Origin: an uncultured Actinomycetes bacterium | Lineage (GTDB): Bacteria; Actinomycetota; UBA4738; HRBIN12 | Length of the DNA stretch: 36,328 nucleotides | Direction: 5' to 3' | Assembly: GCA_964449755.1 (NCBI GenBank) | Contig: CAYVCH010000002.1 | Span: 1-36,328 of the forward strand | Part shown: positions 1 through 25,336 of the stretch, piece after piece | Layout: each line of letters begins with the position of its first letter | How positions within the stretch are numbered: the first letter of the stretch is position 1 | Made by a program: the position numbers and the translations under genes | The notes under the pieces: generated by a model | Database searches by the model: none | What the model was told of the DNA's origin: nothing | Seen by the model: only the letters and a program-made list of their open reading frames with translations

Positions 1-1320
1 CCGCAGCGAGCAGGGCTTCAGCTCGCAGATGGGCAGCGGCGAGAGGAAGCAGGCCCCCACCTCGGTGCCCCCCGAGAGGTTGATGATGGGGCAGCGGGAG
101 CCGCCCACCTCCCGGAACAGCCAGAGGTAGGGCTCCGGGTTCCAGGGCTCCCCGGTGGAGCCGATGATCCGGAGGCTGGACAGGTCGTGGGCCCGGACCG
201 GCTCCTCCCCGAAGGGGATGAGGGACCGGATGAGGGTGGGGGAGACCCCGAGGGTCGTCACCCGGTGCCGCTCGACGGTGGCCCACAGGCGGTCCGGGCC
301 CGGGTGGGTGGGGGCACCCTCCGTGAGGAGGACCGCCGAGCCGAGGGCTCCGGCCCCCACGATCTCCCAGGGGCCCATGATCCAGCCCAGGTCCGTCACC
401 CAGCAGAGCAGCTCGCCGGGGTGCAGATCCACCTGGTAGGCGACCTCCTCGGCGACCTTGACCAGGAACCCGCCGTGGACGTGGACGGCCCCCTTGGGTC
501 GCCCGGTCGTCCCGCTCGTGTACGCGATGAACAGCGGGTGCTCGCTGTCCAGCTCCTCGGTGTCGAAGCGACCCGGGTGGTCGGCGAGCAGGTCCTCCCA
601 GCGGACGTCCCTCCGGGCGTCCCAGGGGGCGTCCCGTCGCCCCAGCCTGCTCCAGACCACCAGCCGGTCCACGCATCCGGCCGCGTCGGCGGCCTGGTTG
701 GCCGTCTCCTTCATGGGGACGACCTGCCCCCGGCGGAGCGACCCGTCGGCGGTGAGCAGGACCCGGGCGCCGGCGTCGGCCAGGCGGGTGGCCACGGCGT
801 CGGCGGCGAAGCCCGAGAAGATCGGCACGTAGACCGCCCCCACCTTCGCGCAGGCCAGGGTGGCCGCCACGATCTCCGGCGCCATGGGCATGAAGATCCC
901 GACAGTGTCCCGGGGCCCCACGCCCAGGGCCCGCAGCCCGTGGGCCAGGCGGTCGGCCATCTCCCGCAGCTCCCGGTAGCTCACCCGGCGAACCTCGCCG
1001 TCCTCCCCCTCCCAGACCACCGCGGGGGCCTCGGGGGTCCGCTCCGCCCAGCGGTCGACGCAGTTGTGGGCCAGGTTCAGCCGGCCCCCCACGAACCACT
1101 GGGCCCACTCGACGCCCCCCGAGGTGTCCAGGACCCGCTCGTAGGGAGTGGAGAACTCCAGGCCCAGGTCGGCCACGACGGCGTCCCAGAACCATGCCAC
1201 GTCCGCCACCGACCGGGCCACCAGCTCCTCGTAGCTGCCGATCCCGTGGGCGCGCATGAAGCGGGTCACGTTCGCCCCCTCCACGTACTCGGGGCTGGGG
1301 CGCCACACCACCTCGTCCAT
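1..1320 (-). CDS. AMP-forming acyl-CoA synthetase (acetyl/propionyl-CoA synthetase-like). N-terminal 440 codons only; the 3' end runs off the window.
   Basis: Absent from the ORF track because it is open at the window edge. Manual reverse-complement translation from the ATG (cat at 1318-1320) gives MDEVVWRPSPEYVEGANVTRFMRAHGI... and stays open to position 1. It carries the AMP-binding signature HPLFIAYTSGTTGRPKGAVH (coded at 481-540), then GWIMGP and IGSTGEPWNPE. Confidence 0.85.
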   Translation of the reverse strand, partial: MDEVVWRPSPEYVEGANVTRFMRAHGIGSYEELVARSVADVAWFWDAVVADLGLEFSTPYERVLDTSGGVEWAQWFVGGRLNLAHNCVDRWAERTPEAPAVVWEGEDGEVRRVSYRELREMADRLAHGLRALGVGPRDTVGIFMPMAPEIVAATLACAKVGAVYVPIFSGFAADAVATRLADAGARVLLTADGSLRRGQVVPMKETANQAADAAGCVDRLVVWSRLGRRDAPWDARRDVRWEDLLADHPGRFDTEELDSEHPLFIAYTSGTTGRPKGAVHVHGGFLVKVAEEVAYQVDLHPGELLCWVTDLGWIMGPWEIVGAGALGSAVLLTEGAPTHPGPDRLWATVERHRVTTLGVSPTLIRSLIPFGEEPVRAHDLSSLRIIGSTGEPWNPEPYLWLFREVGGSRCPIINLSGGTEVGACFLSPLPICELKPCSLR

Positions 1321-1357
1321 GGCGGCTCGCGGCTCCTGGGCCTCGACCACGGCTGCG

Positions 1358-1363
1358 TATACT
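1358..1363 (+). promoter_or_regulatory. Possible -10 element (TATACT) in the 53-bp divergent gap. It sits 10 nt before the ATG at 1374, so the transcript would be near-leaderless.
   Basis: TATACT is the only AT-rich hexamer between the divergent starts at 1320 (-) and 1374 (+). No Shine-Dalgarno sequence precedes the ATG at 1374. Confidence 0.3.
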
Positions 1364-1373
1364 ACGCGGGCCC

Positions 1374-2540
1374 ATGGACCCCCACGCGGCCATCGTGGGC
1401 GTCGGCCACACCGGATGCGTCCCCGTGGCGGCCGGCGTCTCCTACAAGGAGCTCATGCACGAGGCGGCCCGGCGGGCCTATGCCGACGCCGGCCTGGACC
1501 CCCGCCGGGACGTGGACTCCTTCGTCTGCGTCTCGGAGGACCTGGAGGAGGGCACCTCCATCTTCGACGAGTACGTCCCCGACCAGCTCGGCGCCGCGCA
1601 GCGCCCGGTGCACACGCTGGCGGCAGACGGCCTGGCGGCGGTGGCCACCGCCGCCATGCTGATCCGCTCCGGGATCGCCCGGGTGGTCGCGGTGGAGGGC
1701 CACCGGAAGGCCTCGGACGCCCGCACCCCCGGACGGGTCGAGGCCTTCGCCCTGGACCCTGTCTTCGCCCGCCCCCTGGGGGTCTCGGCCCTGGCCGTGG
1801 CGGGCCTGGAGATGCACCGGTACCTGGAGACCACTGGGACCACCGAGGAGCAGTGCGCCGCGGTGGTGGCCCGCAACCGCCGGGCCGCCCTGGCCAACCC
1901 CCGGGCGGCCTACGGTGCCGACCTCACGCCCCGGGACGTGCTGGACTCGGGGCCCCTGTTCTGGCCCCTGAAGGAGCTGGAGCGGGCGCAGCCCGCCGAC
2001 GGATGCGTGGTGCTCGTGCTCGCCGCCGCCGACCGGGCCCGGGAGCTCACCGACCGGCCGGTGTGGGTGACGGGGGTGGGGTGGTCCTCGGGCAGCCCGA
2101 CCCTGGAGAGCCGGGCGTGGGACCGGGCCGACGCCACCGAGCGCGCCGCCGTCATGGCGTACCGGCAGGCCGGCATCGCCGACCCCGCCGCCGAGCTCGA
2201 GCTGGCCGAGGTGGACGACGCCTTCGCCTACAAGGAGCTGCAGCACCTGGAGGCCCTGGGTCTCGCCCCCGAGGGCGGGGCCGGGGCGGCCCTGGTGGCG
2301 GGCGGCTTCGAGCGGGAGGGGGCCCCCCGGGTCAACCCCTCCGGGGGCTCCCTGGGGGAGGGGCACCTGGGGGAGGGGGCGGGCCTCGCCCGCCTGGCCG
2401 CGTGCGTCCTGCAGCTCCGGGGCGAGGCGGGCCCGAGCCAGGTCCCGGGGGTCCGGCGGGCCGTGGCCCAGTCCTGGCGGGGGGTGCCCTCCAACTCGGC
2501 GGCCGTCGTCGTGGTGGCCTCCGAGGAGGGGCTGGGGTGA
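1374..2540 (+). CDS. Thiolase-fold protein of the SCP-x / lipid-transfer-protein type, with catalytic residues degenerate (no nucleophilic Cys).
   Basis: 388-aa ORF. It aligns along its length with SCP-x thiolases (VNPSGGSLGEGH, LQLRGEAG, PVWVTGVGW). The NNNCATGS nucleophile position reads LAADGLAA (Asp85, 1626-1628). Confidence 0.85.
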   Translation: MDPHAAIVGVGHTGCVPVAAGVSYKELMHEAARRAYADAGLDPRRDVDSFVCVSEDLEEGTSIFDEYVPDQLGAAQRPVHTLAADGLAAVATAAMLIRSGIARVVAVEGHRKASDARTPGRVEAFALDPVFARPLGVSALAVAGLEMHRYLETTGTTEEQCAAVVARNRRAALANPRAAYGADLTPRDVLDSGPLFWPLKELERAQPADGCVVLVLAAADRARELTDRPVWVTGVGWSSGSPTLESRAWDRADATERAAVMAYRQAGIADPAAELELAEVDDAFAYKELQHLEALGLAPEGGAGAALVAGGFEREGAPRVNPSGGSLGEGHLGEGAGLARLAACVLQLRGEAGPSQVPGVRRAVAQSWRGVPSNSAAVVVVASEEGLG

Positions 2541-4282
2541 GCCGCCGGGTGGCGGTGGTCGGGGCCGGCATGACCCGGTTCATGCGCCGGGCCCTGGAGA
2601 CCGGCCGCGAGCTGTCCTACGAGGCCGCCCGGGCGGCCCTGGACTCCTGCGGCCTCACCCTGGCCGACGTCGACGCGGTGTGCCTGGGCACGGCCCCCGA
2701 CGCCTTCGACGGCGTCCACCGCAAGGGGGAGTACCTGGCCGACGGCTGCGGGGCCTACGGCAAGCCCTTCATCCGGAGCTACGTGGGCGGCGGGACCGGG
2801 GTCTTCACCGCCATCCAGGGCTGGTACACGGTGGCCTCGGGCCTGGCCGACGTGGTCCTGGTGGTGGCCGAGGAGAAGATGTCCTCGTGCCAGCCCCACC
2901 CCCAGGGAGCCTTCCTCACGATCTTCGACAGCGTCCTGGAGCGGCCCCTGGGACCGAACCTCCTCTGGATCTTCGCCCTGGAGATGAACCGTTACCTCGC
3001 CGTCCACGGCCTGGACAAGCGGGACATCGCCCGGGTGGCGGTGAAGAACAAGCGGAACGCGGCGGACCACCCGGCGGCCCAGCTGGGCAGCCACGAGATC
3101 ACCGTGGAGGACGTGCTCGCCTCGGAGGTCCTGGCCTGGCCGGTACAGCGCCTGGACGTCTCGCCCGTCTCCGACGGGGCCGTGGCCGTGGTCGTCGCCT
3201 CCGAGGAGGCGGCCCGGCGCATCACCGACAGGCCGGTGTGGGTCCAGGGGGTGGGCTGGAACCTGGACACCGCCTACTGGACCAACCGGGACCTGGTCTA
3301 CCCCGAGTACGTCGAGCGGGCGGCCCGCATGGCCTACGGGATGGCCGGGGTGCGCGATCCCCGGCGGGAGATCGACCTGGCCGAGCCCTACGACCCCTTC
3401 GACTACAAGGAGCTGCACCACCTAGAGGGGCTCCTGCTGTTCGACCGGGGCAAGGCCCCCGAGGCCGCCCGGGACGGCGTCCTCGACCGCGACGGGGACC
3501 TCCCCTCCTGTCCCTCGGGGGGGCTCCTGGGGGTGGGCAACCCCATCGCCGCGGCGGGGCTCATGAAGGTGGCGGAGCTGTTCTGGCAGCTCCGGGGGGA
3601 GGCCGGGGCCCGGCAGGTCCCGGGGAGCCCCCGCCGGGGCGTCGCCCAGGCCTGGGGAGACCTCATGCAGGTGGGGACGGTGGTGGTCATGGGCGTGGAC
3701 CGGCCGCCGGTGGCTCCCGAGGCGAGGCCGCCCGCCACGGCGGGCCCGGGGTCGCTCCCCGTCGGCACGCCGCCCGTGGCTCCGGAGGGTCACTCCCTGT
3801 CCGACGGGGAGTTCGAGTCCGACCCCTTCGCCGTGAACGCCCGCCTGGACACGGCCTACGCCTGGGACGCGGGCGTGGCGGTCGGGGGGTTCCTGCGGGG
3901 CCTCGAGGAGGGACGGATCCTCGGCCGGGCCTGCCCCGAGTGCGGCCGGGTCCTCGTCCCGCCCCGGGTCTTCTGCGAGCGGTGCTTCCGCCCCACGACC
4001 CGTTGGGAGCCGGTGGCCGACACCGGGGTCGTGCAGACCTTCTCCCTGTGCCACGTGTCCTGGGACATGCGCCGCCTGGCGGAGCCGGAGATCCCCGCGG
4101 TCATCGCCGTGGACGGCTCCGACGGCGGCCTCCTCCACCTCCTGGGCGAGGTCCGGCCCGAGGACGTCCGGGTGGGGATGGCCGTGGAGGCGGTGTGGAA
4201 GCCGGAGGCCGAGCGGGAGGGCTCGATCCGGGACATCCGGTACTTCCGGCCCCGCGGCGACGGGGGCCGGGGGAGGGCCTGA
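2537..4282 (+). CDS. Thiolase-fold protein (Cys-less, Ltp2-like) fused through a Pro-rich linker to a C-terminal DUF35 zinc-ribbon/OB-fold domain.
   Basis: The GTG at 2537 overlaps the upstream TGA (GTGA). The N-terminal ~385 aa are SCP-x thiolase-like (VAVVGAGMTRF, VLVVAEEKMS, PSGGLLGVGNP, FWQLRGEAG). A linker DRPPVAPEARPPATAGPG... follows. The last ~150 aa (about 3821-4282) carry the DUF35 pattern CPECG-x13-CERC and an OB-like tail. The first 1.3 kb of track ORF 1256..4282 is shadow frame. Confidence 0.85.
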   Translation: MSRRVAVVGAGMTRFMRRALETGRELSYEAARAALDSCGLTLADVDAVCLGTAPDAFDGVHRKGEYLADGCGAYGKPFIRSYVGGGTGVFTAIQGWYTVASGLADVVLVVAEEKMSSCQPHPQGAFLTIFDSVLERPLGPNLLWIFALEMNRYLAVHGLDKRDIARVAVKNKRNAADHPAAQLGSHEITVEDVLASEVLAWPVQRLDVSPVSDGAVAVVVASEEAARRITDRPVWVQGVGWNLDTAYWTNRDLVYPEYVERAARMAYGMAGVRDPRREIDLAEPYDPFDYKELHHLEGLLLFDRGKAPEAARDGVLDRDGDLPSCPSGGLLGVGNPIAAAGLMKVAELFWQLRGEAGARQVPGSPRRGVAQAWGDLMQVGTVVVMGVDRPPVAPEARPPATAGPGSLPVGTPPVAPEGHSLSDGEFESDPFAVNARLDTAYAWDAGVAVGGFLRGLEEGRILGRACPECGRVLVPPRVFCERCFRPTTRWEPVADTGVVQTFSLCHVSWDMRRLAEPEIPAVIAVDGSDGGLLHLLGEVRPEDVRVGMAVEAVWKPEAEREGSIRDIRYFRPRGDGGRGRA

Positions 4283-4746
4283 TGCTCGAGGGAGTCCACC
4301 CCGACCAGGTCCGTCGCTGGCCCGGCGAGTTCCCCTTCCGCTACCGGTACACCGCGGGGGTGGCGGGGACCGTCTTCCTCCGGGCCCTCCGGGACCGGGG
4401 GGTCTTCCTGGGCTCCCGGTGCGGCCGCTGCGACTACACCTACGTCCCCGCGCGGCTCTACTGCGAGCGCTGCTTCGAGCGGCTCCGGGCCGACCTGGAG
4501 GTGGGCCCCGCAGGGACCCTGGAGTCCTTCGCCGTCGGCTACGTGGGGGTGGACGGGGAGCCCCTGGAGGAGCCGGTGACGGTGGGCCTCGTCCGTCTCG
4601 ACGGGGCCGATGCCGTGCTGTTCCACCGGGTGCTCGACGCCGACCGGCCCCTGGAGGTCGGGATGCGGGTGGCGGCGGTCCTCAAGCCCGAGGGCGAGCG
4701 GACCGGCTCCATCCTGGACGTCGAGGGCTTCCGGCCCGTCGAGTGA
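4282..4746 (+). CDS. Stand-alone DUF35 protein (zinc-ribbon plus OB-fold, acyl-CoA-associated).
   Basis: The ATG at 4282 overlaps the upstream TGA (ATGA-type coupling). The 154-aa product has CGRC-x13-CERC and is a paralog of the C-terminal domain of the preceding gene (LEVGMRVAAVLKPEGERTGSILDVEGFRP versus VRVGMAVEAVWKPEAEREGSIRDIRYFRP). Confidence 0.85.
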   Translation: MLEGVHPDQVRRWPGEFPFRYRYTAGVAGTVFLRALRDRGVFLGSRCGRCDYTYVPARLYCERCFERLRADLEVGPAGTLESFAVGYVGVDGEPLEEPVTVGLVRLDGADAVLFHRVLDADRPLEVGMRVAAVLKPEGERTGSILDVEGFRPVE

Positions 4747-5537
4747 GGCTCACCCCCCGGCGTTCCCCTCCCGGGTCCGGTGGGCAGGTGCTCCGGCCTC
4801 GCGTCTTCCGGTCCCTCTCCCCGTACCCAGACCACCACGCCGGTGACGCCCAGCGCGAACCCCCCGACCCCCATGACCACGCCGGCCAGCTGCTGGTCCA
4901 GAACCGGCGGGATCCCCGGGGGACCGGGGCGCTCCCCGTAGGGCGGGTACAGGGGAAGCCGGGAGAGCGAGAGGAACGACCCGAGGTACATAGGCAGGGC
5001 CGCCTGGACCAGCAGGTAGGTCAGGGTCCTCGCCGGCGAGAGGCGCGGCAGCTGGCGGCCGGGGCCGATGACGGGGCTCCACATGGTGGCCGCCGACCCG
5101 AGCAGGGCCGTGTGCAGCGCTGCGTGGGCGAGCTGGGAGCGAGCCATCAGTCCCACGACGGGGGGCCAGTGGATCAGCGCGAGCACGGCGTTGAACAGGA
5201 CGAGGGCCGGGACCGGCCGGGTGAGGGCGCGCACCGCCGCCGCCACGGTCCGCCCCTGGAGGAGCCGACGCACGAGCCGCGGAGGTACCCCGAGCAGCAG
5301 GAGCGGAGGGGCCGCGAGGGCCAGGAGGAGGTGCTGGACCATGTGGGCCCAGTACAGCCGCTCCGCCAGGTCGTGCAGGGGCCAGTCCAGGGTCAGCCAG
5401 AGCCCGAGGACGCCCAGCGTGAACGGCAGGGCCCCGGCGCCCTCGGCGGGGGAGGCCTCACCCAGGGCGAGGAGGTAGGTCCCCGCGAGGGCGAGAACGG
5501 CCACCCATGCCTCGGGGTGGGGATGCCATGCGGGCAT
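4539..5537 (-). CDS. ctaG: Cytochrome oxidase assembly factor, CtaG-like (Caa3_CtaG family polytopic membrane protein).
   Basis: 332-aa ORF with multiple hydrophobic helices and family-like segments (LDWPLHDLAERLYWAHMVQHLLLALAAPPLLLLG, LIHWPPV). The last ~69 codons (4539-4746) are R/S/T/P-rich and lie antisense to the DUF35 gene, so the functional C-terminus is uncertain. Confidence 0.7.
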   Translation of the reverse strand: MPAWHPHPEAWVAVLALAGTYLLALGEASPAEGAGALPFTLGVLGLWLTLDWPLHDLAERLYWAHMVQHLLLALAAPPLLLLGVPPRLVRRLLQGRTVAAAVRALTRPVPALVLFNAVLALIHWPPVVGLMARSQLAHAALHTALLGSAATMWSPVIGPGRQLPRLSPARTLTYLLVQAALPMYLGSFLSLSRLPLYPPYGERPGPPGIPPVLDQQLAGVVMGVGGFALGVTGVVVWVRGEGPEDARPEHLPTGPGRGTPGGEPHSTGRKPSTSRMEPVRSPSGLRTAATRIPTSRGRSASSTRWNSTASAPSRRTRPTVTGSSRGSPSTPT

Positions 5538-5592
5538 CCAGGCCGCGAGGGGGACGGTCGGGGTCGTGGCGGTCCTTTCCCTTCAGGGGCGC

Positions 5593-5621
5593 TTGACAGG
5601 AGACGCGGGAAGGAGTATAGA
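5593..5621 (+). promoter_or_regulatory. Sigma-70/SigA-type promoter: TTGACA, 17-nt spacer, TATAGA.
   Basis: TTGACA at 5593-5598, an exact 17-nt spacer, and TATAGA at 5616-5621. It lies in an AT-enriched gap upstream of the oxidase operon. Confidence 0.6.
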
Positions 5622-5624
5622 CGC

Positions 5625-5645
5625 AAAGGACCTAAAAGGTCTTTT
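5625..5645. promoter_or_regulatory. AT-rich imperfect palindrome AAAGGACCT-AAA-AGGTCTTTT just downstream of the -10. Candidate operator.
   Basis: The two 9-nt arms are inverted repeats with one mismatch. The element stands out in ~70% GC DNA and sits where a repressor would block initiation. Confidence 0.45.
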
Positions 5646-5677
5646 GAATCCTCCAGCTGGCACGGGAGGTGGTCGCG

Positions 5678-5845
5678 GTGGGCACCGAGGCTCGGGAGGT
5701 GCCGGAGGAACAGGTCCCCTTCGGGCAGATCGTCTTCGACAACATCTGGCTCCTCTTCGTGCTCGGCATCGGGATCCCGTTCCTCTCCTACATCGTCTGG
5801 GGGCTGATCGACATCGGGAGCACGCCCCTGGCGCCGCCGCGGTGA
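5678..5845 (+). CDS. Small single-pass membrane protein (55 aa). Possible accessory subunit of the downstream oxidase, analogous in position to subunit IIa.
   Basis: Not in the ORF track. A GTG at 5678 is preceded by GGGAGG (5664-5669, 8-nt spacer). Translation is VGTEAREVPEEQVPFGQIVFDNIWLLFVLGIGIPFLSYIVWGLIDIGSTPLAPPR, with one clear TM helix. GC3 is high in this frame. It occupies the slot of cbaD in Thermus cbaDBA, but I see no sequence similarity to it. Confidence 0.4.
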   Translation: MGTEAREVPEEQVPFGQIVFDNIWLLFVLGIGIPFLSYIVWGLIDIGSTPLAPPR

Positions 5846-5893
5846 CGGGCCGACGGCGGGCGGCGGGGGCCTGAGGTACGAGGGGGAAAGGGG

Positions 5894-6412
5894 ATGGCGC
5901 TCACCGCACCCGAGCGGGTCTGGTGGAGGCCGGTCGGCCGCCAGGAGCGCGTCTGGGTCGGCCTCAGTGTCGGCTTCACGCTCCTGCTGTTCTTCTCGAT
6001 GCCGGCGTGGCACCTCTTCGCGAAACAGAACACCCCGAACGAGTACTACCGGATCGCGCCCGCTCAGTTCCTGGAGCGGGCGAACGCATTCATCGACCAG
6101 TACCAGGTGGGGACCGAGGCGGGCCTCCCGGTGGTGCGGCCCCCGGAGGGGGACGTGTACCTCATCGCCCGGCAGTGGCAGTGGAGCCCCATCCTGGTGC
6201 TGACGGCGGGCAAGACGTATCGGCTGCACCTGTCCTCCGTCGACGTCCAGCACAGCCTCTCGCTGCAGCCGACGAACATGAACTTCCAGGTCGTTCCCGG
6301 GTACGACTACGTGCTCACGATCACGCCGACCCCCGGCTCGTACACCATCATCTGCAACCAGTTCTGCGGCCTGGGCCACTACCAGATGAGCGGCAAGATC
6401 GTCGTGGAATGA
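5894..6412 (+). CDS. cbaB: Heme-copper oxidase subunit II, ba3 (B-family) type, with an intact CuA site.
   Basis: 172 aa with an N-terminal TM helix and a cupredoxin domain. The C-terminus YTIICNQFCGLGHYQMSGKIVVE matches Thermus CbaB (RIICNQYCGLGHQNMFGTIVVKE). The upstream CuA His lies in SSVDVQHSL. Confidence 0.9.
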   Translation: MALTAPERVWWRPVGRQERVWVGLSVGFTLLLFFSMPAWHLFAKQNTPNEYYRIAPAQFLERANAFIDQYQVGTEAGLPVVRPPEGDVYLIARQWQWSPILVLTAGKTYRLHLSSVDVQHSLSLQPTNMNFQVVPGYDYVLTITPTPGSYTIICNQFCGLGHYQMSGKIVVE

Positions 6413-6441
6413 GCAGCAGGATCGTCGTGGAGGAGTGAGCC

Positions 6442-8154
6442 ATGGCCATCGCGATCCCCCGTCCCGTGCGGAGGCCGGTCGAGTTCTCGTCCCGCACCTG
6501 CGAGCTCACGGGGCTCCGTGTCGACCTGGTCGCCCAGCGCCTCATCGTGACGAACGCCGTGACCGCCATCGTCTTCCTGTTGATCGGCGGGGTGATGGCG
6601 CTCCTGGTGGGGCTCACCCGGTGGCCGGCCATCGGCCTGCTCTCGTCCCAGCCCGACCTCTACTTTCGAGCCGTCACCCTGCACGGCCAGAACATGCTGC
6701 TGTTCTGGATCATCTTCTTCGAGGTCGCTGGGCTGTACTTCGGGAGCGCCGTGGCGCTGAACGCCAGGTTGGTGAAACCGGGCCTGGCGTGGCTGGCCTA
6801 CGGGCTCATGCTGGGCGGGGCGGTCCTCACCGACGTCGTGGTGTTCACGGGGAGGGGCACCGTGATGTGGGATGCCTACATCCCCCTCCGGGCGCACCCG
6901 CTGTTCTACGTGGGGTACGACCTGTTCGCCGTGGGCGCCCTGCTGGCGGTGGGGCTGTTCTTCGCGACCATCGTGGTGGCCAGAGCCGAGGGGCGCTTCA
7001 CGGGGTCCCTGCCGCTGTTCACCTACGGGCTCGTCGCCGCCGGCATCATCGCCACCTTCACCTTGCTGGGCGGGGTCATCACGTTCGTGCCGGCCCTCTT
7101 CTGGGCCCTCGGCATCATGGACTTCGATCCCGAGGTCTACCGACTGAACCTGTGGGCCATGGGACACGGCAGCCAGCAGATCAACCTGGCGGCCATGGTG
7201 GCCATCTGGTACCTGCTCGCGCACCTCACGACCGGGGCCCGCGTGCTCAACCAGAAGCTCAGCCGGTTCGCCTTCATCCTGTACATCCTGTTCATCAACC
7301 TGGGGTCCAACCACCACCTGCTGACCGATCCCGGCCTCACCATCGGCTACAAGGTCTGGAACACCAGCTACGCGATGTACGGGGCCGTCCTCGGGAGCAT
7401 GATCCACGCCTTCTCGATCCCCTCCTCGGTGGAGGTGGCCCAGCGGGCCAGGGGGTACGGCCGGGGGCTCTTCGAGTGGCTCCGGAAGGGACCCTGGCGG
7501 AACCCCGGCTTCTCGGCCCTGGTGCTCTCGATGGTGGGGTTCGGCTTCCTCGCGGGCACCACCGGCGTGGTCTGGGGCCACGAGCAGATCAACATCATCC
7601 ACCACAACACGCTGTCGGTGCCCGGCCACTTCCACGCGACCGTGGTGCTGGGGACCACCCTCGCGTTCATGGGACTGACCTACTACGTGATCCCGCTCAT
7701 CGCCCGCCGGGAGCTGGTGGGCAGGCGCTGGGCGGCGGTGCAACCCTACGTCTACGGGGCCGGCGTCGCCCTCCTGGCGGTGGGGATGGTGACCTCGGGT
7801 GGCCTCGGGGTCCCCAGGAGGGTCCCGACCCTCGACTACCCGGGGGCCCCCGTGCCCGTCGCGTTCAGCGGGGGCGCCTACACGGCCCTCACCGTCATGG
7901 GCATCGGGGCGGTGCTGGCGCTGGTGGGCGGCGCCCTGTTCATCGGGATCGCCGTCGGCTCGGTGCTGTGGGGCCGGCGGATCCCCGTGGGGCAGGCGCC
8001 GCAAAGCGTCGCCATTGCGCCCGCCGTCGACCTGGATGCCGTGGAGCACCGGGCCCCGGGGACCCTGGTCATGGCCCTGGTCTTCCTCGGCTGGTTCGCC
8101 GTCGTGGTCCTGGGCAACCTCTGGCGTCTGGGGAGCCTGTGGCCCTTGAGCTAG
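6442..8154 (+). CDS. cbaA: Heme-copper oxidase superfamily catalytic subunit I, B-family (ba3-like), with a non-canonical active-site helix VI (no cross-link Tyr).
   Basis: 570 aa and polytopic. Matches to Thermus CbaA include VTLHGQN (heme b His), NHHLLTDPGL (His-His), RGLFEWLRKGPWRNPGF, HHNTLSVPGHFHATV and GVPRR. The GHPIVYFW segment is replaced by GHGSQQIN (7162-7185). Confidence 0.9.
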   Translation: MAIAIPRPVRRPVEFSSRTCELTGLRVDLVAQRLIVTNAVTAIVFLLIGGVMALLVGLTRWPAIGLLSSQPDLYFRAVTLHGQNMLLFWIIFFEVAGLYFGSAVALNARLVKPGLAWLAYGLMLGGAVLTDVVVFTGRGTVMWDAYIPLRAHPLFYVGYDLFAVGALLAVGLFFATIVVARAEGRFTGSLPLFTYGLVAAGIIATFTLLGGVITFVPALFWALGIMDFDPEVYRLNLWAMGHGSQQINLAAMVAIWYLLAHLTTGARVLNQKLSRFAFILYILFINLGSNHHLLTDPGLTIGYKVWNTSYAMYGAVLGSMIHAFSIPSSVEVAQRARGYGRGLFEWLRKGPWRNPGFSALVLSMVGFGFLAGTTGVVWGHEQINIIHHNTLSVPGHFHATVVLGTTLAFMGLTYYVIPLIARRELVGRRWAAVQPYVYGAGVALLAVGMVTSGGLGVPRRVPTLDYPGAPVPVAFSGGAYTALTVMGIGAVLALVGGALFIGIAVGSVLWGRRIPVGQAPQSVAIAPAVDLDAVEHRAPGTLVMALVFLGWFAVVVLGNLWRLGSLWPLS

Positions 8155-8171: not shown

Positions 8172-8666
8172 ATGAAGCTCTCGCGGGAGAGCGAGTACGG
8201 GCTGAAGGCCCTCGTGTACCTCGCGACCCAGCCGCCGGGCAGCATCATCCAGGCGGGACGGCTGGCCGAGGCCGCCGGGCTGCCGCCCATGTTCCTGGCC
8301 AAGACCCTGCGGAAGCTGACGCGCCACGGGATCCTCCGCTCCCACCAGGGAAGGAACCGCGGTTACGGCCTGGGCCGGCCCCCGGGGGAGATCTGCGTGC
8401 GGGAGGTGCTGGAGACCATCGAGGGCCCCGACCTGTTCGAGCGCTGCGTGTTCTGGAGCGACCTGTGCTCCGAGCGCAACCCGTGCCTGCTGCACGAGAC
8501 CTGGCGGACGGTGCGGCCGGTCATGCGGGAGCTCATGGAGCACATCTCGCTGGATGAGGTGGCGGAGGGCCACCCGCTGCCGGGGGTGGCCGGGGCGAGG
8601 TTCGTGCGGGGGACAGCATCATCAGGACCCGGTGGGAGGTCGAGGCCGTCCAGGGTGGGGCCGTGA
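8172..8666 (+). CDS. Rrf2-family transcriptional regulator (IscR/NsrR-like) with putative Fe-S ligands.
   Basis: 164 aa. The N-terminal wHTH MKLSRESEYGLKALVYLA is typical of Rrf2 proteins. The ligand pattern is C92-x6-C99-x5-C105-x2-H108 (8445-8495). It starts 17 nt after subunit I, and its stop overlaps the ctaB start. Confidence 0.85.
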   Translation: MKLSRESEYGLKALVYLATQPPGSIIQAGRLAEAAGLPPMFLAKTLRKLTRHGILRSHQGRNRGYGLGRPPGEICVREVLETIEGPDLFERCVFWSDLCSERNPCLLHETWRTVRPVMRELMEHISLDEVAEGHPLPGVAGARFVRGTASSGPGGRSRPSRVGP

Positions 8667-9595
8667 GGGCGCGGTCGGGGGCGGCCCTGGTGGCCGGGAC
8701 GGAGGGCGCGGTTGCCGAGCGCGCCCCTTGGCTGGCCCCCTACGTGGCCCTCACGAAGCCTCGGGTCGTCTCCCTGCTCGTCCTGACCGGTGCCTGCGCG
8801 GCGGTGGTGGGCGCCGGCGGCCGTGCCGACGCCACGGTCCTGGCGGCCGTCGTGGGGGGCGGGGGGCTTGCCGCCGGAGGGGCCAACGCCCTGAACTGCG
8901 CCCTGGACCGGGACCTGGACGCGCTGATGGCCCGCACGCGGGATCGCCCCCTGCCCCGGGGCAGGGTTCCGACGGCGCACGCCGTGGCCCTCGGTCTCGC
9001 GCTCAACGCCCTGGCGGCCCTCTGGCTGGTTGGAGCCGCCAACGTCCTGGCGGCGGTCCTGGCCCTGGCCGGCTCCGCCTGGTACGTGGTCGTGTACACC
9101 TGGTGGCTGAAGCGACGGTCCCCGCAGAACATCGTCATCGGGGGCGCCGCGGGTTGCTTTCCGCCGCTCGTGGGGTGGGCGGCCGCCACGGGTACGGTGG
9201 ATGGCACGGCCCTGGCTCTGGCGGCCGTCGTCTTCTTGTGGACCCCCGTTCACTTCTGGGCCCTGGCCACCCTGCTCCGCGAGGACTACCGCCGGGCGGG
9301 GGTGCCTATGCTTCCCGTCGTGGCGCCGCCGACCAGGGTGGCCCGTCTGATGCTCGGCTACGCGGTGGCGACGGCCCTGGCCAGCCTCTCGCCGGTGGCC
9401 TGGGGCGGACTCGGTCTCCCCTACCTGGTGGTGGCGCTGGCCGGCGGGGTCGGGCTGGTGCGGCGGGCGTGGGCGCACCGGCGGCGACCCGGCGCCAGCC
9501 CGACCCGCGGCCTGTACCGGTACTCGCTCGCGTACGTGGCCGGGTTGTTCGTGACCGCCGCGCTGGAGCGGATGGCGTTCCTCGTCGGAGGCTAG
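8663..9595 (+). CDS. ctaB: Protoheme IX farnesyltransferase (heme O synthase).
   Basis: 310 aa, starting at a GTG in a GTGA overlap. UbiA-family motifs are present: YVALTKPRVVSLLV, NALNCALDRDLDALMARTRDRPLPRG, WTPVHFWALA. Confidence 0.9.
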   Translation: MRARSGAALVAGTEGAVAERAPWLAPYVALTKPRVVSLLVLTGACAAVVGAGGRADATVLAAVVGGGGLAAGGANALNCALDRDLDALMARTRDRPLPRGRVPTAHAVALGLALNALAALWLVGAANVLAAVLALAGSAWYVVVYTWWLKRRSPQNIVIGGAAGCFPPLVGWAAATGTVDGTALALAAVVFLWTPVHFWALATLLREDYRRAGVPMLPVVAPPTRVARLMLGYAVATALASLSPVAWGGLGLPYLVVALAGGVGLVRRAWAHRRRPGASPTRGLYRYSLAYVAGLFVTAALERMAFLVGG

Positions 9596-9617: not shown

Positions 9618-10037
9618 ATGGCGCGACGGCTCTTGCTGGCCCTGGCAGTCGTGGCCCTGGCCGTCCCCGCTTGCGGCGGCGGAGGGGGCGGAGGGGGCGG
9701 CGGTGGCATCGCCGTGAAGCTCGCCGAGTGGTCCGTGACCGTGGACCCGGCCAGCGCCCCGGCCGGGACTGTTACGTTCAACGTCGAGAACGGCGGCGCC
9801 AACGTCCACGAGCTCGTGGTGTTCAAGACCGAGCTGGCGGAGGATGCCCTGCCCGTCGTCGGGGACGCGGTGGACGAGACGGCGCCCGACCTGACCCTCG
9901 TCGACGAGGTGGAGGACATCGCGCCGGGGGGCACCGCCACGCTGACCGTTGACCTGGAGCCCGGGAACTACGTGTTGATCTGCAACATCAGCGGGCACTA
10001 CTCGCGGGGGATGCACGCCGCCTTCGCCGTGAGCTGA
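9618..10037 (+). CDS. Lipoprotein cupredoxin (type-1 blue copper protein).
   Basis: 139 aa with RBS GGAAGGAGG. The signal peptide ends in ...LAVPAC, followed by an 11-Gly tether (9675-9707). Copper ligand pattern: His in NVHELVV, then CNISGHYSRGM (C-x4-H-x4-M). Confidence 0.75.
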   Translation: MARRLLLALAVVALAVPACGGGGGGGGGGGIAVKLAEWSVTVDPASAPAGTVTFNVENGGANVHELVVFKTELAEDALPVVGDAVDETAPDLTLVDEVEDIAPGGTATLTVDLEPGNYVLICNISGHYSRGMHAAFAVS

Positions 10038-23383: not shown

Positions 23384-24640
23384 TCAGGCCGGGGTCACGC
23401 GGACGGGCATGTGCTTGACGCCGTTGATGAAGTTCGAGCGCAGGCGCTCCACGGGCCCGGTGAGCTCGATGTCCGCCAGGCGCGGCAGCAGCTCCTCGAA
23501 CATGACCCTCACCTCCAGGCGGGCCAGGTGGGCACCGAGGCAGATGTGGGGCCCGCCGCTGCCGAAGGCCATCTGGGGGTTCGGGTCCCGGCCCACGTCG
23601 AACCGGAAGGGGTCGGCGAAGACCTCCTCGTCCCGGTTGCCGGAGACGAACCAGACAACCACCTTGTCGCCGCGGCGGATCCGTCTGCCTCCCAGCTCGA
23701 CGTCCCGGGTGGCGGTGCGGCGGAAGTGCATGGTCGGGGAGGACCACCGCAGGATCTCCTCGATGGCGAGGGGCATGAGGGAGGGGTCCCGGCGGAGCCG
23801 CTCCCACTGGTCCCGGTGCTCCATCAGGGCGAGCATCCCGTGGCTGATCGCGTGGCGGGTGGTCTCGTTGCCGGCCACCGCGACGAGGCAGAAGAAGTTG
23901 TCGAGCTCCTGCTCGGTGAGGCGCTGCCCCTCGACCTCGGCGTGGACGAGCTTGGTGACGAGGTCGTCCCGGGGCTCCCGGCGCCGCTCCGCGGCCATGG
24001 CGTGGGCGTAGGCCATCATGTCGAGGGCGGCGGGGCTCCGGAAGGGGAGCAGGCGGTAGTCGCTCGTGTCCTCCTTGTCGATCACCGCCCGGGAGTACTC
24101 CGGGTCGGCCTGGGCGATCATGGCGTCGCCCCACTCGATGATCTGGGGGGTGTCCTCCTCGGGAACGCCCATGATCCGGGCGAGGATGCGGATGGGCAGC
24201 TCCCGGGAGACCTCCTCGACGAAGTCGAACTCCTCCTTGGGCAGGGCGTGGTCGAGGACCCGGCGGGCCAGCTCCCGGCAGAACCCCTCGTAGCGGGCGA
24301 CGGCGGAGCGGGTGAACAGGGGGCTCACGATCTTCCGGAGCCTGGTGTGCCTGGGGGGGTCCATGTCGATCATGGACCGGCGGGCCTCCACCTCCTCGGG
24401 GGTCTGCTCCTCCAGGGTGATGCCCTGCGCCGAGGAGAAGGTGGCGGTGTCCTTCAGGACCCCCTCGATGTCCCGGAACCGCGTGACGGCCCAGAAGCCG
24501 TGGTTAGGCGGGGGCTCCTCCTGCCAGTGGACGGGGTCGTGTCGGCGCAGGAGGGTGAAGGCCCAGTGGGGAACCTCCTCCACGAAGAAGTCGTGGCTCC
24601 AGAGCTGGATGTCCTCGAGACGGCCGGCGGCGACGTGCAT
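23384..24640 (-). CDS. Cytochrome P450 monooxygenase.
   Basis: ATG at 24640 (cat 24638-24640) after GGGAGGGAG. The 418-aa product has the I-helix AGNETT, the ExxR motif EEILRW and the heme loop FGSGGPHICLGAHLA. The upstream part of track ORF 23384..25168 is an over-extension. Confidence 0.9.
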   Translation of the reverse strand: MHVAAGRLEDIQLWSHDFFVEEVPHWAFTLLRRHDPVHWQEEPPPNHGFWAVTRFRDIEGVLKDTATFSSAQGITLEEQTPEEVEARRSMIDMDPPRHTRLRKIVSPLFTRSAVARYEGFCRELARRVLDHALPKEEFDFVEEVSRELPIRILARIMGVPEEDTPQIIEWGDAMIAQADPEYSRAVIDKEDTSDYRLLPFRSPAALDMMAYAHAMAAERRREPRDDLVTKLVHAEVEGQRLTEQELDNFFCLVAVAGNETTRHAISHGMLALMEHRDQWERLRRDPSLMPLAIEEILRWSSPTMHFRRTATRDVELGGRRIRRGDKVVVWFVSGNRDEEVFADPFRFDVGRDPNPQMAFGSGGPHICLGAHLARLEVRVMFEELLPRLADIELTGPVERLRSNFINGVKHMPVRVTPA

Positions 24641-24665
24641 GGCGCTCCCTCCCGGACGAAGATCT

Positions 24666-24677
24666 TTCGGTACCGAA
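24666..24677. promoter_or_regulatory. Perfect 12-bp palindrome TTCGGTACCGAA in the P450 / AhpD-like divergent gap. Candidate operator.
   Basis: It is self-complementary by direct reading and lies in the AT-enriched 96-bp gap between divergent starts at 24640 and 24737. Confidence 0.5.
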
Positions 24678-24684
24678 GGATATC

Positions 24685-24696
24685 TTGCTACCGAAC
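24685..24696. promoter_or_regulatory. Second, degenerate copy of the operator motif (TTGCTACCGAAC; reverse complement GTTCGGTAGCAA).
   Basis: It shares the TTCGGTAGC core with 18931-18942 and lies 7 nt from the perfect palindrome. Confidence 0.4.
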
Positions 24697-24736
24697 GGTC
24701 GGTCGACGCAAGGTCCGGCCCGGCGCTGGGGAGGTG

Positions 24737-25336
24737 ATGGGAGTGGCCCGCGTGGAACCGCTGAACCGGGAGGACCACCCGGAGCTGGAGGGGCTCTTCC
24801 GGCTCTACGAGGAGACCCTGTCCTTCGTGCCCAACAGCCTGCTCACGATGGCCCGCCGGCCGGAGATCCTGCGGGCCCTCTCCGAGCTGATCACGGCCAT
24901 CTGGCGGACGGGCACGGTGCCGGTGACCCTGAAGCCGCTGGTCGCCCTGGTCGCCAGCTGGGCCGCGGGGTGTCGTTACTGCCAGGCCCACGAGGCGGTG
25001 GATGCGCGGATGCGGGGGGTCCCGGAGGAGAAGGTCGCCGCCGTCTGGGACTTCGAGCGGAGCCCCCTGTACTCGGAGGCCGAGCGGGCGGCCCTGCGCT
25101 TCGCCCGGGACGCCTCCGTGGTGCCGAACGCCGTGACCGAGGCCCACTTCCGGGCGCTCCGACGCCACTTCGACGAGGGAGAGATCGTCGAGATCCTGGC
25201 GGTGGTGGGGCTGTTTGGGTTCCTGAACCGCTGGAACGAGACGATGGCTACGGACCTGGAGGAGGTCCTCCGGGGCCTCGCCGGCCGGGTCCTGGGCTCA
25301 CGGTGGGAGCCCGGGAAGCACGGACCCGGCGGGTGA
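24737..25336 (+). CDS. AhpD-like / carboxymuconolactone decarboxylase family protein (peroxidase-related).
   Basis: ATG at 24737 after GGGGAGG. The 199-aa product has the CxxC motif AAGCRYCQAHE in the usual family context. Confidence 0.8.
   Translation: MGVARVEPLNREDHPELEGLFRLYEETLSFVPNSLLTMARRPEILRALSELITAIWRTGTVPVTLKPLVALVASWAAGCRYCQAHEAVDARMRGVPEEKVAAVWDFERSPLYSEAERAALRFARDASVVPNAVTEAHFRALRRHFDEGEIVEILAVVGLFGFLNRWNETMATDLEEVLRGLAGRVLGSRWEPGKHGPGG

Follow-up and report, generated by a model that had tools for sequence, protein, structure and literature searches.

A probable eNOR-type nitric oxide reductase operon with Gln in place of the cross-linked Tyr of B-family oxidases

Among the nitric oxide reductases of the heme-copper superfamily is a family termed eNOR (Hemp and Gennis 2008). 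Its members include the eNOR of Rhodothermus marinus and the 'cytochrome a1-like' protein of Magnetospirillum magnetotacticum (Murali et al. 2024, PMC11214002), and the family is found in Rhodothermales, Rhodocyclaceae and Anaerolineae groups (PMC11214002, PMC8756737). The R. marinus enzyme, which has a CuA subunit and K-channel-like residues, reduced NO at 0.68 NO/s (25 C) after purification and did not reduce O2, and the low-spin heme has His/Lys ligation in 'some eNORs' (PMC11214002). Both heme sites of eNOR hold a modified heme a (heme As), and the operons often include CtaA. The family is diagnosed by a Gln that stands in for the cross-linked Tyr of the active site (PMC8756737, Table A4 and Methods); this site is occupied by Asn in sNOR and CuANOR, by Glu in cNOR and qNOR and by Asp in gNOR (PMC8756737 Table A4). 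In gNOR, moreover, an Asp replaces one active-site His and subunit II is without CuA ligands (PMC11214002). A 'K family' of O2 reductases clusters with eNOR (bioRxiv 10.1101/592808).

Here we describe a locus of this kind in a 36,328-nt stretch of DNA (that is, the window, taken at its full length), which we consider very probably to encode an eNOR-type nitric oxide reductase of the heme-copper superfamily that is derived from B-family (ba3-like) oxidases. The gene cluster is an intact eNOR-type operon whose gene set comprises a CtaG-like factor, a small membrane subunit, subunit II, subunit I, an Rrf2 regulator, heme O synthase and a blue-copper lipoprotein. A preliminary description of the DNA had suggested that one nitric oxide reductase family carries Gln at the Tyr site, and this family does exist, as eNOR (PMC8756737); by treating an already described family as an open possibility, that description overstated the novelty of the locus. 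As Gln-for-Tyr eNOR has already been published, the protein extends a known enzyme family by one member and is no new kind of enzyme; the window adds one more eNOR, probably in uncultured Actinomycetota, and leaves the view of the family unchanged.

The gene for catalytic subunit I (6442–8154, + strand; third-position GC 0.97) encodes 570 amino acids that match PF00115 (E 8e-58), and its best match among PDB chains (HMMER) is subunit I of Thermus thermophilus ba3 (E 7e-43). Aligned with ba3, H81 (6682–6684) and H398 correspond to the low-spin heme ligands, H396 to the high-spin heme ligand (H396/H398, 7627–7635) and H242 (7165–7167), H291 and H292 (7312–7317) to the ligands of the active-site metal; all six are invariant in the 120 closest homologues, which bears out the earlier statement that the heme His and the His trio are kept, and a Lys occurs at the 398 position in a few more distant clade members. 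Helix VI (7162–7200, translating to GHGSQQINLAAMV) aligns with ba3 without a gap, placing H233 on H242 and Y237, the cross-linked Tyr, on Gln246 (codon CAG, 7177–7179, + strand). The substitution that first drew attention to the protein is thus confirmed, and a codon check found every coordinate and residue in the preliminary description to be correct. Q245 (7174–7176), Q246 and N248 are likewise invariant in the 120 closest homologues, as is the motif GHxxQQxN that contains both Gln residues, which is present in 87/87 loci. Since all 120 homologues carry Gln at residue 246 and the reading frame is intact, we reject a pseudogene or a sequencing error at this codon; an independent assembly carries an identical subunit I protein. 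The AlphaFold2 model of subunit I (mean pLDDT 89.3, pTM 0.91) has ba3 as its top PDB matches in a structural search (TM about 0.8), and cNOR and qNOR are not among the 50 structural matches listed.

Whether such a protein might still respire O2, as an ordinary B-family O2 reductase whose His-Tyr cofactor is replaced by some other residue or an unconventional Tyr, deserves consideration, given that ba3 is its closest solved structure, that the CuA ligands, heme ligands and K-channel analogue are all kept, that the oxidase-type assembly genes CtaG and CtaB are neighbours and that several Tyr residues, including Y257 and Y281, are conserved in the family (120 closest homologues). However, the residue at His+4 in helix VI, a Tyr in ba3-type O2 reductases, is the invariant Gln246, and a sequence check found no Tyr in residues 234–256 or 282–300 of subunit I, in keeping with the earlier remark that none lies near the site. 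The only other known cross-link site is that of the C family, which we take from the P. stutzeri cbb3 structure to lie in helix VII at the sixth residue ahead of the HH pair. Here this position is occupied by Ile285 (invariant in 120/120 homologues), and subunit II is a CuA cupredoxin and not a cytochrome c, so that neither feature of a C-family (cbb3-type) enzyme is found. The helix VII Tyr that had been suggested as a possible substitute is therefore absent, and the other suggested candidate, Y257, falls on ba3 Y248, which belongs to the K-channel and is not the cross-linked Tyr. Counted along the chain, Y257 is 15 residues away from H242 and Y281 precedes H291 by 10, distances that, in the ba3 alignment, would place both deeper in the membrane. 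Together with a purified family member that does not reduce O2 (PMC11214002) and the clustering of family members with nirS, nirK-like and nosZ genes, these observations make an O2 reductase a highly improbable reading of the locus.

In a neighbour-joining tree, the GHxxQQxN clade, with the window protein inside it, separates from Tyr-bearing relatives in 100/100 bootstraps, as do the classical B-family sequences (likewise 100/100). The 87 GHxxQQxN loci include Rhodothermales, Rhodocyclaceae, Anaerolineae, Thermus and Thermomicrobium, and the clade members from Thermus, L070 and L071 carry GHFK, matching the His/Lys ligation described for some eNORs. The scan of genome contigs yielded 80 named loci, R. 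marinus not among them; the link to the characterised enzyme is accordingly indirect and runs through the diagnostic residue, the taxa and an identity of ~50% between the window subunit I and a Rhodothermales homologue. Within the clade, the window protein and those of loci L002 and L004–L007 form a small subclade (99/100 bootstrap), in which the Rrf2 gene directly follows subunit I in 5/6 members. Other nitric oxide reductase families were rejected in turn: cNOR, qNOR and nNOR, given Gln246 rather than Glu at His+4 and no significant NorB match in PDB sequences; sNOR/bNOR (CuANOR), given Gln246 where Asn is expected (PMC8756737 Table A4); and gNOR, given the presence of all three His and all CuA ligands. 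The earlier proposal, a B-family offshoot that has CuA but no active-site Tyr and acts on NO rather than O2, is thus supported by a clade with 100% bootstrap, by the R. marinus enzyme (PMC11214002) and by frequent nirS, nirK-like or nosZ neighbours.

Subunit II (5894–6412, + strand; 172 amino acids) consists of a single N-terminal membrane helix and a CuA cupredoxin domain, and its top PDB match is subunit II of ba3 (E 1.4e-14). H120, C154, C158, H162 and M165 are matched to the CuA ligands H114, C149, C153, H157 and M160 of ba3, and E18 aligns with ba3 E15, the Glu at the entry of the K-channel; all six residues are invariant in 83/83 related loci, and the earlier statement that every CuA ligand is kept is correct. 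Upstream, where the ba3 genes include that for subunit IIa, lies a gene for a conserved single-helix membrane protein of 58 amino acids (5669–5845, + strand), which is probably a third subunit. A counterpart likewise stands just ahead of subunit II in 57/87 loci (tblastn), the pattern Q..D...LL...P...Y.vWG is common to 56 aligned copies, and the copies on Thermus and T. roseum plasmids are annotated 'hypothetical protein'. The small-subunit segment overlaps a cytochrome c gene match in L005 and L006 and a SoxE-like cupredoxin match in L002 and L004, which suggests fusion to an electron-donor domain in some lineages.

The remaining genes are those of cofactor supply, electron donation and regulation. 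A CtaG-like (caa3-type) cytochrome oxidase assembly factor (4539–5537, − strand; PF09678 Caa3_CtaG, E 1.7e-40), divergent from the eNOR genes, is probably a copper-insertion factor, and a CtaG homologue is also present upstream of the eNOR-like genes of Thermomicrobium roseum. Heme O synthase CtaB (8663–9595, + strand; NCBIfam NF003349, 325 bits against a cut-off of 246), which catalyses the first step towards A-type hemes, has a match in 31/87 loci, mostly immediately 3' of subunit I. CtaA was found neither among the scanned ORFs of the window nor by tblastn of the whole window with the T. roseum CtaA domain; in T. roseum, a CtaA–CtaB fusion follows the eNOR-like homologue. The cluster ends with a lipoprotein cupredoxin (9618–10037, + strand) that has an AVPAC lipobox, a poly-Gly tether and the type-1 copper ligands H64, C122, H127 and M132. 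Its Pfam matches are weak and below the curated cut-offs (Cupredoxin_1, 26 versus 27 bits; SoxE, 20.3 versus 21), and it is a candidate electron donor to CuA; in close relatives, the downstream lipoprotein is replaced by an upstream gene for either a SoxE-like cupredoxin or a cytochrome c.

From homology, on which each of the following steps rests, we infer an activity, a metal site, an electron donor, a proton path and a mode of regulation. An extracytoplasmic one-electron donor, plausibly the adjacent blue-copper lipoprotein, would reduce the CuA centre of subunit II, from which electrons would pass to the low-spin heme and on to the binuclear site formed by the high-spin heme and the metal held by H242, H291 and H292. 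Given that Gln246 replaces the His-Tyr cofactor, the site would be unable to supply the fourth electron and the proton for O2 cleavage, yet a two-electron reaction would still be possible (2 NO + 2 e- + 2 H+ -> N2O + H2O). Protons would enter from the cytoplasm, probably through a K-channel analogue that begins at E18 of subunit II and continues through S325, H322, S319 and Y257 of subunit I; S319, H322, S325 and Y257 are matched to ba3 S309, T312, T315 and Y248 and are invariant or nearly so. Such cytoplasmic proton uptake would make NO reduction electrogenic. The heme precursor would come from CtaB and the copper from the CtaG-like protein.

Regulation may be encoded within the operon. The Rrf2-family transcription factor (8172–8666, + strand; PF02082, E 5.9e-30) carries a Cys92/Cys99/Cys105 triad and scores 98 bits against the Rrf2 superfamily model (cut-off 73.3) and 47.7 bits against the NsrR equivalog model (cut-off 182 bits); it is a probable Fe-S, NO-responsive regulator of the operon, and its gene is also found immediately 3' of subunit I in L002–L006 and on Thermus plasmids. 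Upstream of the small-subunit gene, a promoter-like element read by eye (5593–5621, + strand) comprises TTGACA (5593–5598), a 17-nt spacer and TATAGA (5616–5621). A scan for the strict sigma-70 consensus reported no promoter, missing this element because its −10 hexamer does not end in T; TTGACA is also present upstream of the operon in L002, L004, L005, L006 and a Thermus plasmid. The element is followed by an AT-rich palindrome, AAAGGACCTAAAAGGTCTTTT (5625–5645, + strand), whose arms match at 8/9 positions around a 3-nt loop in a genome of 74% GC, and related elements (AAAAG(A/G)GT...GGTCTTTT) follow TTGACA in L002, L004, L005 and L006. To judge from its sequence, the palindrome is a candidate operator for the co-encoded regulator, which would probably repress the operon there until NO appears. 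A fuzzy palindrome search in other loci gave loose matches only (5 mismatches), and we therefore treat the operator as a lead.

The physiological role of the predicted enzyme can be viewed in two ways, which differ in role and not in the identity of the enzyme. The 36 kb window holds no nir, nos or nar gene, and on this gene content NO detoxification is as possible as respiratory denitrification. NsrR-type regulators typically control NO-stress genes, and the ScdA/DUF542 family is linked to iron-centre repair. An eNOR that serves detoxification under NsrR-like control would agree with the missing nitrite reductase and N2O reductase genes, with a Cys-triad Rrf2 regulator inside the operon and with the ScdA/DUF542 gene that comes after the Thermus version. 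However, the window is only 36 kb of the genome, so that nir and nos may sit elsewhere, and the closest relatives with the same order of subunit II, subunit I and Rrf2 adjoin a nirK-like gene or a nos cluster: a nosZ-nosL-nosD-nosF-nosY cluster lies 3' of the operon in a 66%-identical relative and a nirK-like gene adjoins it in 67%- and 61%-identical relatives. More widely, nirS is encoded no more than 10 kb away in 13/80 genome loci and a nirK-like gene in 6/80 (19/80 together), and the eNOR-like genes of a Thermus thermophilus plasmid have nirS and a multicopper oxidase as neighbours. On balance, we find detoxification a possible but rather doubtful account of the role. The same neighbourhoods bear on whether NO is the substrate at all. 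With a single eNOR assayed to date, its turnover low (0.68 NO/s, 25 C; PMC11214002), and 'alternative substrates' left open in the literature (PMC8756737), one might entertain a substrate that is neither NO nor O2, or a heme protein that acts as a sensor or has no catalytic role; yet the redox-cofactor ligands and proton-path residues are all strictly conserved, and NO as the substrate agrees with the nitrite reductase genes that accompany family members, making this very unlikely.

As an eNOR, the enzyme suggests a host able to convert NO to N2O, a greenhouse gas, and possibly to conserve energy in doing so. Genes of this kind are labelled in databases as cytochrome c oxidase or 'cbb3-type oxidase subunit I', and label-based gene surveys would consequently count eNOR as oxygen respiration and not as denitrification. 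In the accessible eNOR literature we found no description of the small single-helix subunit or of the Rrf2–palindrome unit. We tentatively suggest, while holding it rather less than even in likelihood, that two features of eNOR operons are undescribed (that is, a conserved single-helix subunit of 40–60 amino acids upstream of subunit II, fused to a donor domain in some lineages, and, in the subclade, a self-contained NO-responsive unit with Rrf2 in the operon and an AT-rich palindromic operator at the promoter) and that, with the GHxxQY sister group, the family offers a natural switch between O2 and NO chemistry that turns on a single residue, Tyr or Gln.

Compared with known systems, the locus shares with cNOR and qNOR (for example, Pseudomonas aeruginosa NorBC) the superfamily, the proposed reaction and a Tyr-less binuclear site, whereas in those enzymes the Glu at His+4 serves as a fourth ligand to FeB, there is either a heme c subunit or a fused domain that lacks CuA, and a cytoplasmic proton channel is absent; neither appears among the significant sequence matches or the structural matches listed. 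The closest solved structure, ba3 (PDB 1EHK, 1XME, 3S8F), is alike in its heme and metal His ligands, its CuA site, its single K-type proton path and the small extra membrane-subunit gene upstream of subunit II, but differs in an identity of ~27% and in three replacements (Y237 by Gln246, Y244 by Val253 and T312 by His322), and the invariant Q245, N248 and E94 of the window protein are not found in ba3. A Tyr-bearing sister group with the motif GHxxQY[IV]N (P0140, P0141, P0142, P0155), which is 34–43% identical to the window protein and joins the eNOR clade in 68/100 bootstraps, shares with it the Gln at His+3, the Asn at His+6, the helix II Glu (FFEVA), Tyr281 and His322; since it keeps Tyr at His+4, this group is presumably an O2 reductase, and it is possibly the K family. 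The window has neither CtaA, which is frequent in eNOR operons, nor a nitrite or N2O reductase gene, and its protein belongs to a small subclade, mostly with an Rrf2 gene after subunit I. In other respects the locus resembles the eNOR family, with Gln for Tyr, three His metal ligands, a CuA subunit II, K-channel-like residues (among them the Ser that corresponds to S309 of ba3), and an operon with heme O synthase whose relatives adjoin nirS, nirK-like and nosZ genes.

Two adjacent plus-strand genes, backed by the ORF listing and by a third-position GC of 0.93–0.97 in a window of approximately 74% GC, encode a COX2-like cupredoxin subunit II (5894–6412; 172 amino acids) and a heme-copper oxidase subunit I (6442–8154; 570 amino acids; PF00115, E 8e-58). 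In a HMMER search of all PDB chains, the top match of subunit I was Thermus thermophilus ba3 subunit I (E 7e-43), and the alignment, which is gap-free around helix VI, places ba3 H72, H233, Y237, Y248, H282/H283 and H384/H386 on H81, H242, Q246, Y257, H291/H292 and H396/H398, respectively. An alignment of subunit II to its ba3 counterpart (E 1.4e-14) matches the CuA ligands with H120, C154, C158, H162 and M165, and puts E18 on ba3 E15, the entry to the K-type proton path. These equivalences, together with codon coordinates that proved exact, confirm the observation of the preliminary description that Gln occupies the position of the cross-linked Tyr in an enzyme that keeps all of its CuA ligands.

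A second, independent assembly holds the identical protein, and in the 120 closest database homologues (55–100% identity to subunit I) H81, E94, Y146, W238, G241, H242, Q245, Q246, N248, W256, Y257, Y281, I285, H291, H292, S319, H322, H396 and H398 are all invariant. Tyr is absent from subunit I residues 234–256 and 282–300. Y257, previously put forward as a possible substitute, is 15 positions away from H242 and aligns with ba3 Y248, which belongs to the K path. The helix VII cross-link Tyr of the C family, which in the Pseudomonas stutzeri cbb3 structure lies six residues before the HH pair, is replaced by the invariant Ile285. Given that Y281, 10 residues ahead of H291, is roughly as deep as ba3 Y244, itself Val253 in subunit I, it may represent a relocated K-path Tyr. 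The AlphaFold2 model of subunit I is confident (mean pLDDT 89.3, pTM 0.91) and most closely resembles ba3 (TM about 0.8), followed by Aquifex ba3 and then A-family oxidases, with neither cNOR nor qNOR among the 50 structural matches listed. As the search of all PDB chains found no sequence closer than ba3, the PDB apparently lacks an eNOR structure so far.

Gln at the Tyr site is diagnostic of eNOR, the residue being Tyr in O2 reductases, Glu in cNOR and qNOR, Asn in sNOR and CuANOR, Asp in gNOR and Gln in eNOR (PMC8756737, Methods, Table A4, after Hemp & Gennis 2008); eNOR is thus the Gln-bearing family to which the preliminary description alluded. Purified Rhodothermus marinus eNOR, which has heme As in both heme sites, a CuA-type subunit and retained K-channel-like residues, reduces NO (0.68 per second at 25 °C) but not O2 (PMC11214002), which supports the proposed NO-reductase-type reading. 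The window enzyme is most probably a new, uncharacterised member of eNOR.

When 185,579 species genomes were scanned, 80 loci (48–68% identity) were recovered, in Chloroflexota (many of them Anaerolineae), Nitrospirota, Rhodocyclaceae, Burkholderiales, a Rhodothermales MAG, Bacteroidota, Aquificaceae and others, and GHxxQQxN is present in 87/87 loci when further fetched loci are included. Across 1.84 billion cluster representatives, QQ is kept at 41–49% identity, a group at 34–43% identity carries GHxxQY[IV]N (and hence Tyr), and classical ba3-like sequences (24–28%) carry GHP[LV]VYFW. In a neighbour-joining tree (110 sequences, 535 columns), the QQ clade and the classical B family each received 100/100 bootstraps, the subclade of the window protein with related loci L002 and L004–L007 received 99/100, and QQ and QY sequences were joined in 68/100, with the QY group paraphyletic; set against the characterised R. 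marinus enzyme, the window protein is placed only indirectly. Four QY proteins (P0140, P0141, P0142 and P0155; 34–43% identity) keep Tyr at His+4 in GHxxQY[IV]N, yet resemble eNOR in Gln at His+3, Asn at His+6, the helix II Glu (FFEVA), Tyr281 and His322. They may represent the O2 reductases termed the ‘K family’, which according to bioRxiv 10.1101/592808 clusters with eNOR, and this Tyr-bearing sister group may be a new, if minor, point.

The origin of the genes in this genome hints at horizontal acquisition, given that the best named genome match of the window eNOR is a Chloroflexota MAG (68%), whereas SerA of the same contig shares 71–77% identity with the database homologues listed, all organism-named ones being Actinomycetota MAGs, and that GC falls to 0.68–0.70 over the eNOR genes (5001–8000) against 0.73–0.76 in the flanks. 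However, the GC dip could simply reflect membrane-protein composition.

Around the two genes lie a CtaG-like assembly factor (4539–5537, minus strand), a 58-amino-acid single-helix ORF (5669–5845) upstream of subunit II, an Rrf2 regulator (8172–8666; Cys92, Cys99 and Cys105), heme O synthase (8663–9595) and a lipoprotein cupredoxin with type-1 copper ligands (9618–10037). The last carries an unusual 11-Gly run directly behind the lipobox Cys (AVPAC-GGGGGGGGGGG), presumably a flexible tether. The window lacks nir, nos, nar and ctaA genes, and its remainder encodes general metabolism. There, two consecutive thiolase-like genes (1260–4746), each with a ChsH2-type zinc-ribbon/OB-fold (DUF35) domain either behind it or fused to it, adjoin an acetyl-CoA-synthetase-like gene; at 3856–4749 a high-GC3 minus-strand frame overlaps the plus-strand frame bearing the ChsH2 domains. 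In a 637-amino-acid minus-strand frame (23384–25297), the cytochrome P450 domain covers residues 271–605 only, and the N-terminal 270 residues, which have no Pfam match, could reflect a misassigned start or a fused domain of unknown type.

A small single-helix ORF of 40–60 amino acids 5′ of subunit II (motif Q..D...LL...P...Y.vWG), labelled only ‘hypothetical protein’ in public records, is kept in 57/87 loci (same position in L006-L086; L087, 8340–8465; L088, 8238–8393). The stretch that corresponds to it coincides in part with a cytochrome c gene in L005/L006 and with a SoxE-like cupredoxin gene in L002/L004; these overlaps point to a membrane anchor or subunit that in some cases forms a fusion with the electron donor. 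The Rrf2 protein stays below the cut-off of the NsrR equivalog model (47.7 against 182 bits), but may plausibly sense NO. TTGACA-17-TATAGA followed by an AT-rich palindrome, AAAGGACCTAAAAGGTCTTTT (5593–5645), stands out in a 74% GC genome as a candidate operator; similar AAAAG(A/G)GT...GGTCTTTT elements follow TTGACA in relatives that also have an in-operon Rrf2 gene (L002, 8649–8673; upstream of the first operon gene in L004, L005 and L006). Both the conserved small subunit and the pairing of Rrf2 gene and candidate operator may be new minor points.

The gene neighbourhoods of relatives say more: cupredoxin, II, I, Rrf2 and cytochrome c precede nosZ-nosL-nosD-nosF-nosY (66% identity); II, I and Rrf2 precede a nirK-like two-domain copper oxidase (67%); and a long nirK-like gene and cytochrome c lie upstream (61%). 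Thermus thermophilus TTHNAR1 plasmid 4 encodes nirS, a multicopper oxidase, small ORF, II, I, Rrf2 and ScdA-N (DUF542), and Thermomicrobium roseum encodes CtaG, small ORF, II, I and a CtaA–CtaB fusion. Of the 80 genome loci, whose median length is 15.8 kb, 13 have nirS within 10 kb, 6 a nirK-like gene and 1 nosZ, far above what would be expected of genes found roughly once in each genome. In Thermus plasmids L087/L089, the operon lies next to nirS and a multicopper oxidase and is followed by Rrf2, ScdA-N/DUF542 and a small gene for an AraC-type ligand-binding domain. Four loci from Nitrospirota, Chloroflexota and Rokubacteria (L030, L037, L062 and L077) carry a second heme-copper subunit I gene (29–32% identity) directly 3′ of that for eNOR subunit I, about 1.7–1.9 kb past the start of the latter, in which a motif search found no canonical helix VI motif.

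By homology, on which the entire proposed mechanism is based, a periplasmic donor (in this operon perhaps the neighbouring blue-copper lipoprotein; cytochrome c or a SoxE-like cupredoxin in relatives) would feed electrons through CuA and the low-spin heme to the high-spin heme and His3-bound metal, a site that, lacking the His-Tyr cofactor, would be limited to the two-electron reduction 2 NO -> N2O. The retained E18(II)/S325/H322/S319/Y257 path suggests that protons would come from the cytoplasm and that the reaction would be electrogenic, as already proposed for eNOR (PMC11214002). The family has already been described, with one member biochemically characterised. The T. thermophilus plasmid homologues (L087 and L089), L070 and L071 have GHFK rather than GHFH at the low-spin heme, a His/Lys pair consistent with the ligation mentioned for some eNORs (PMC11214002).
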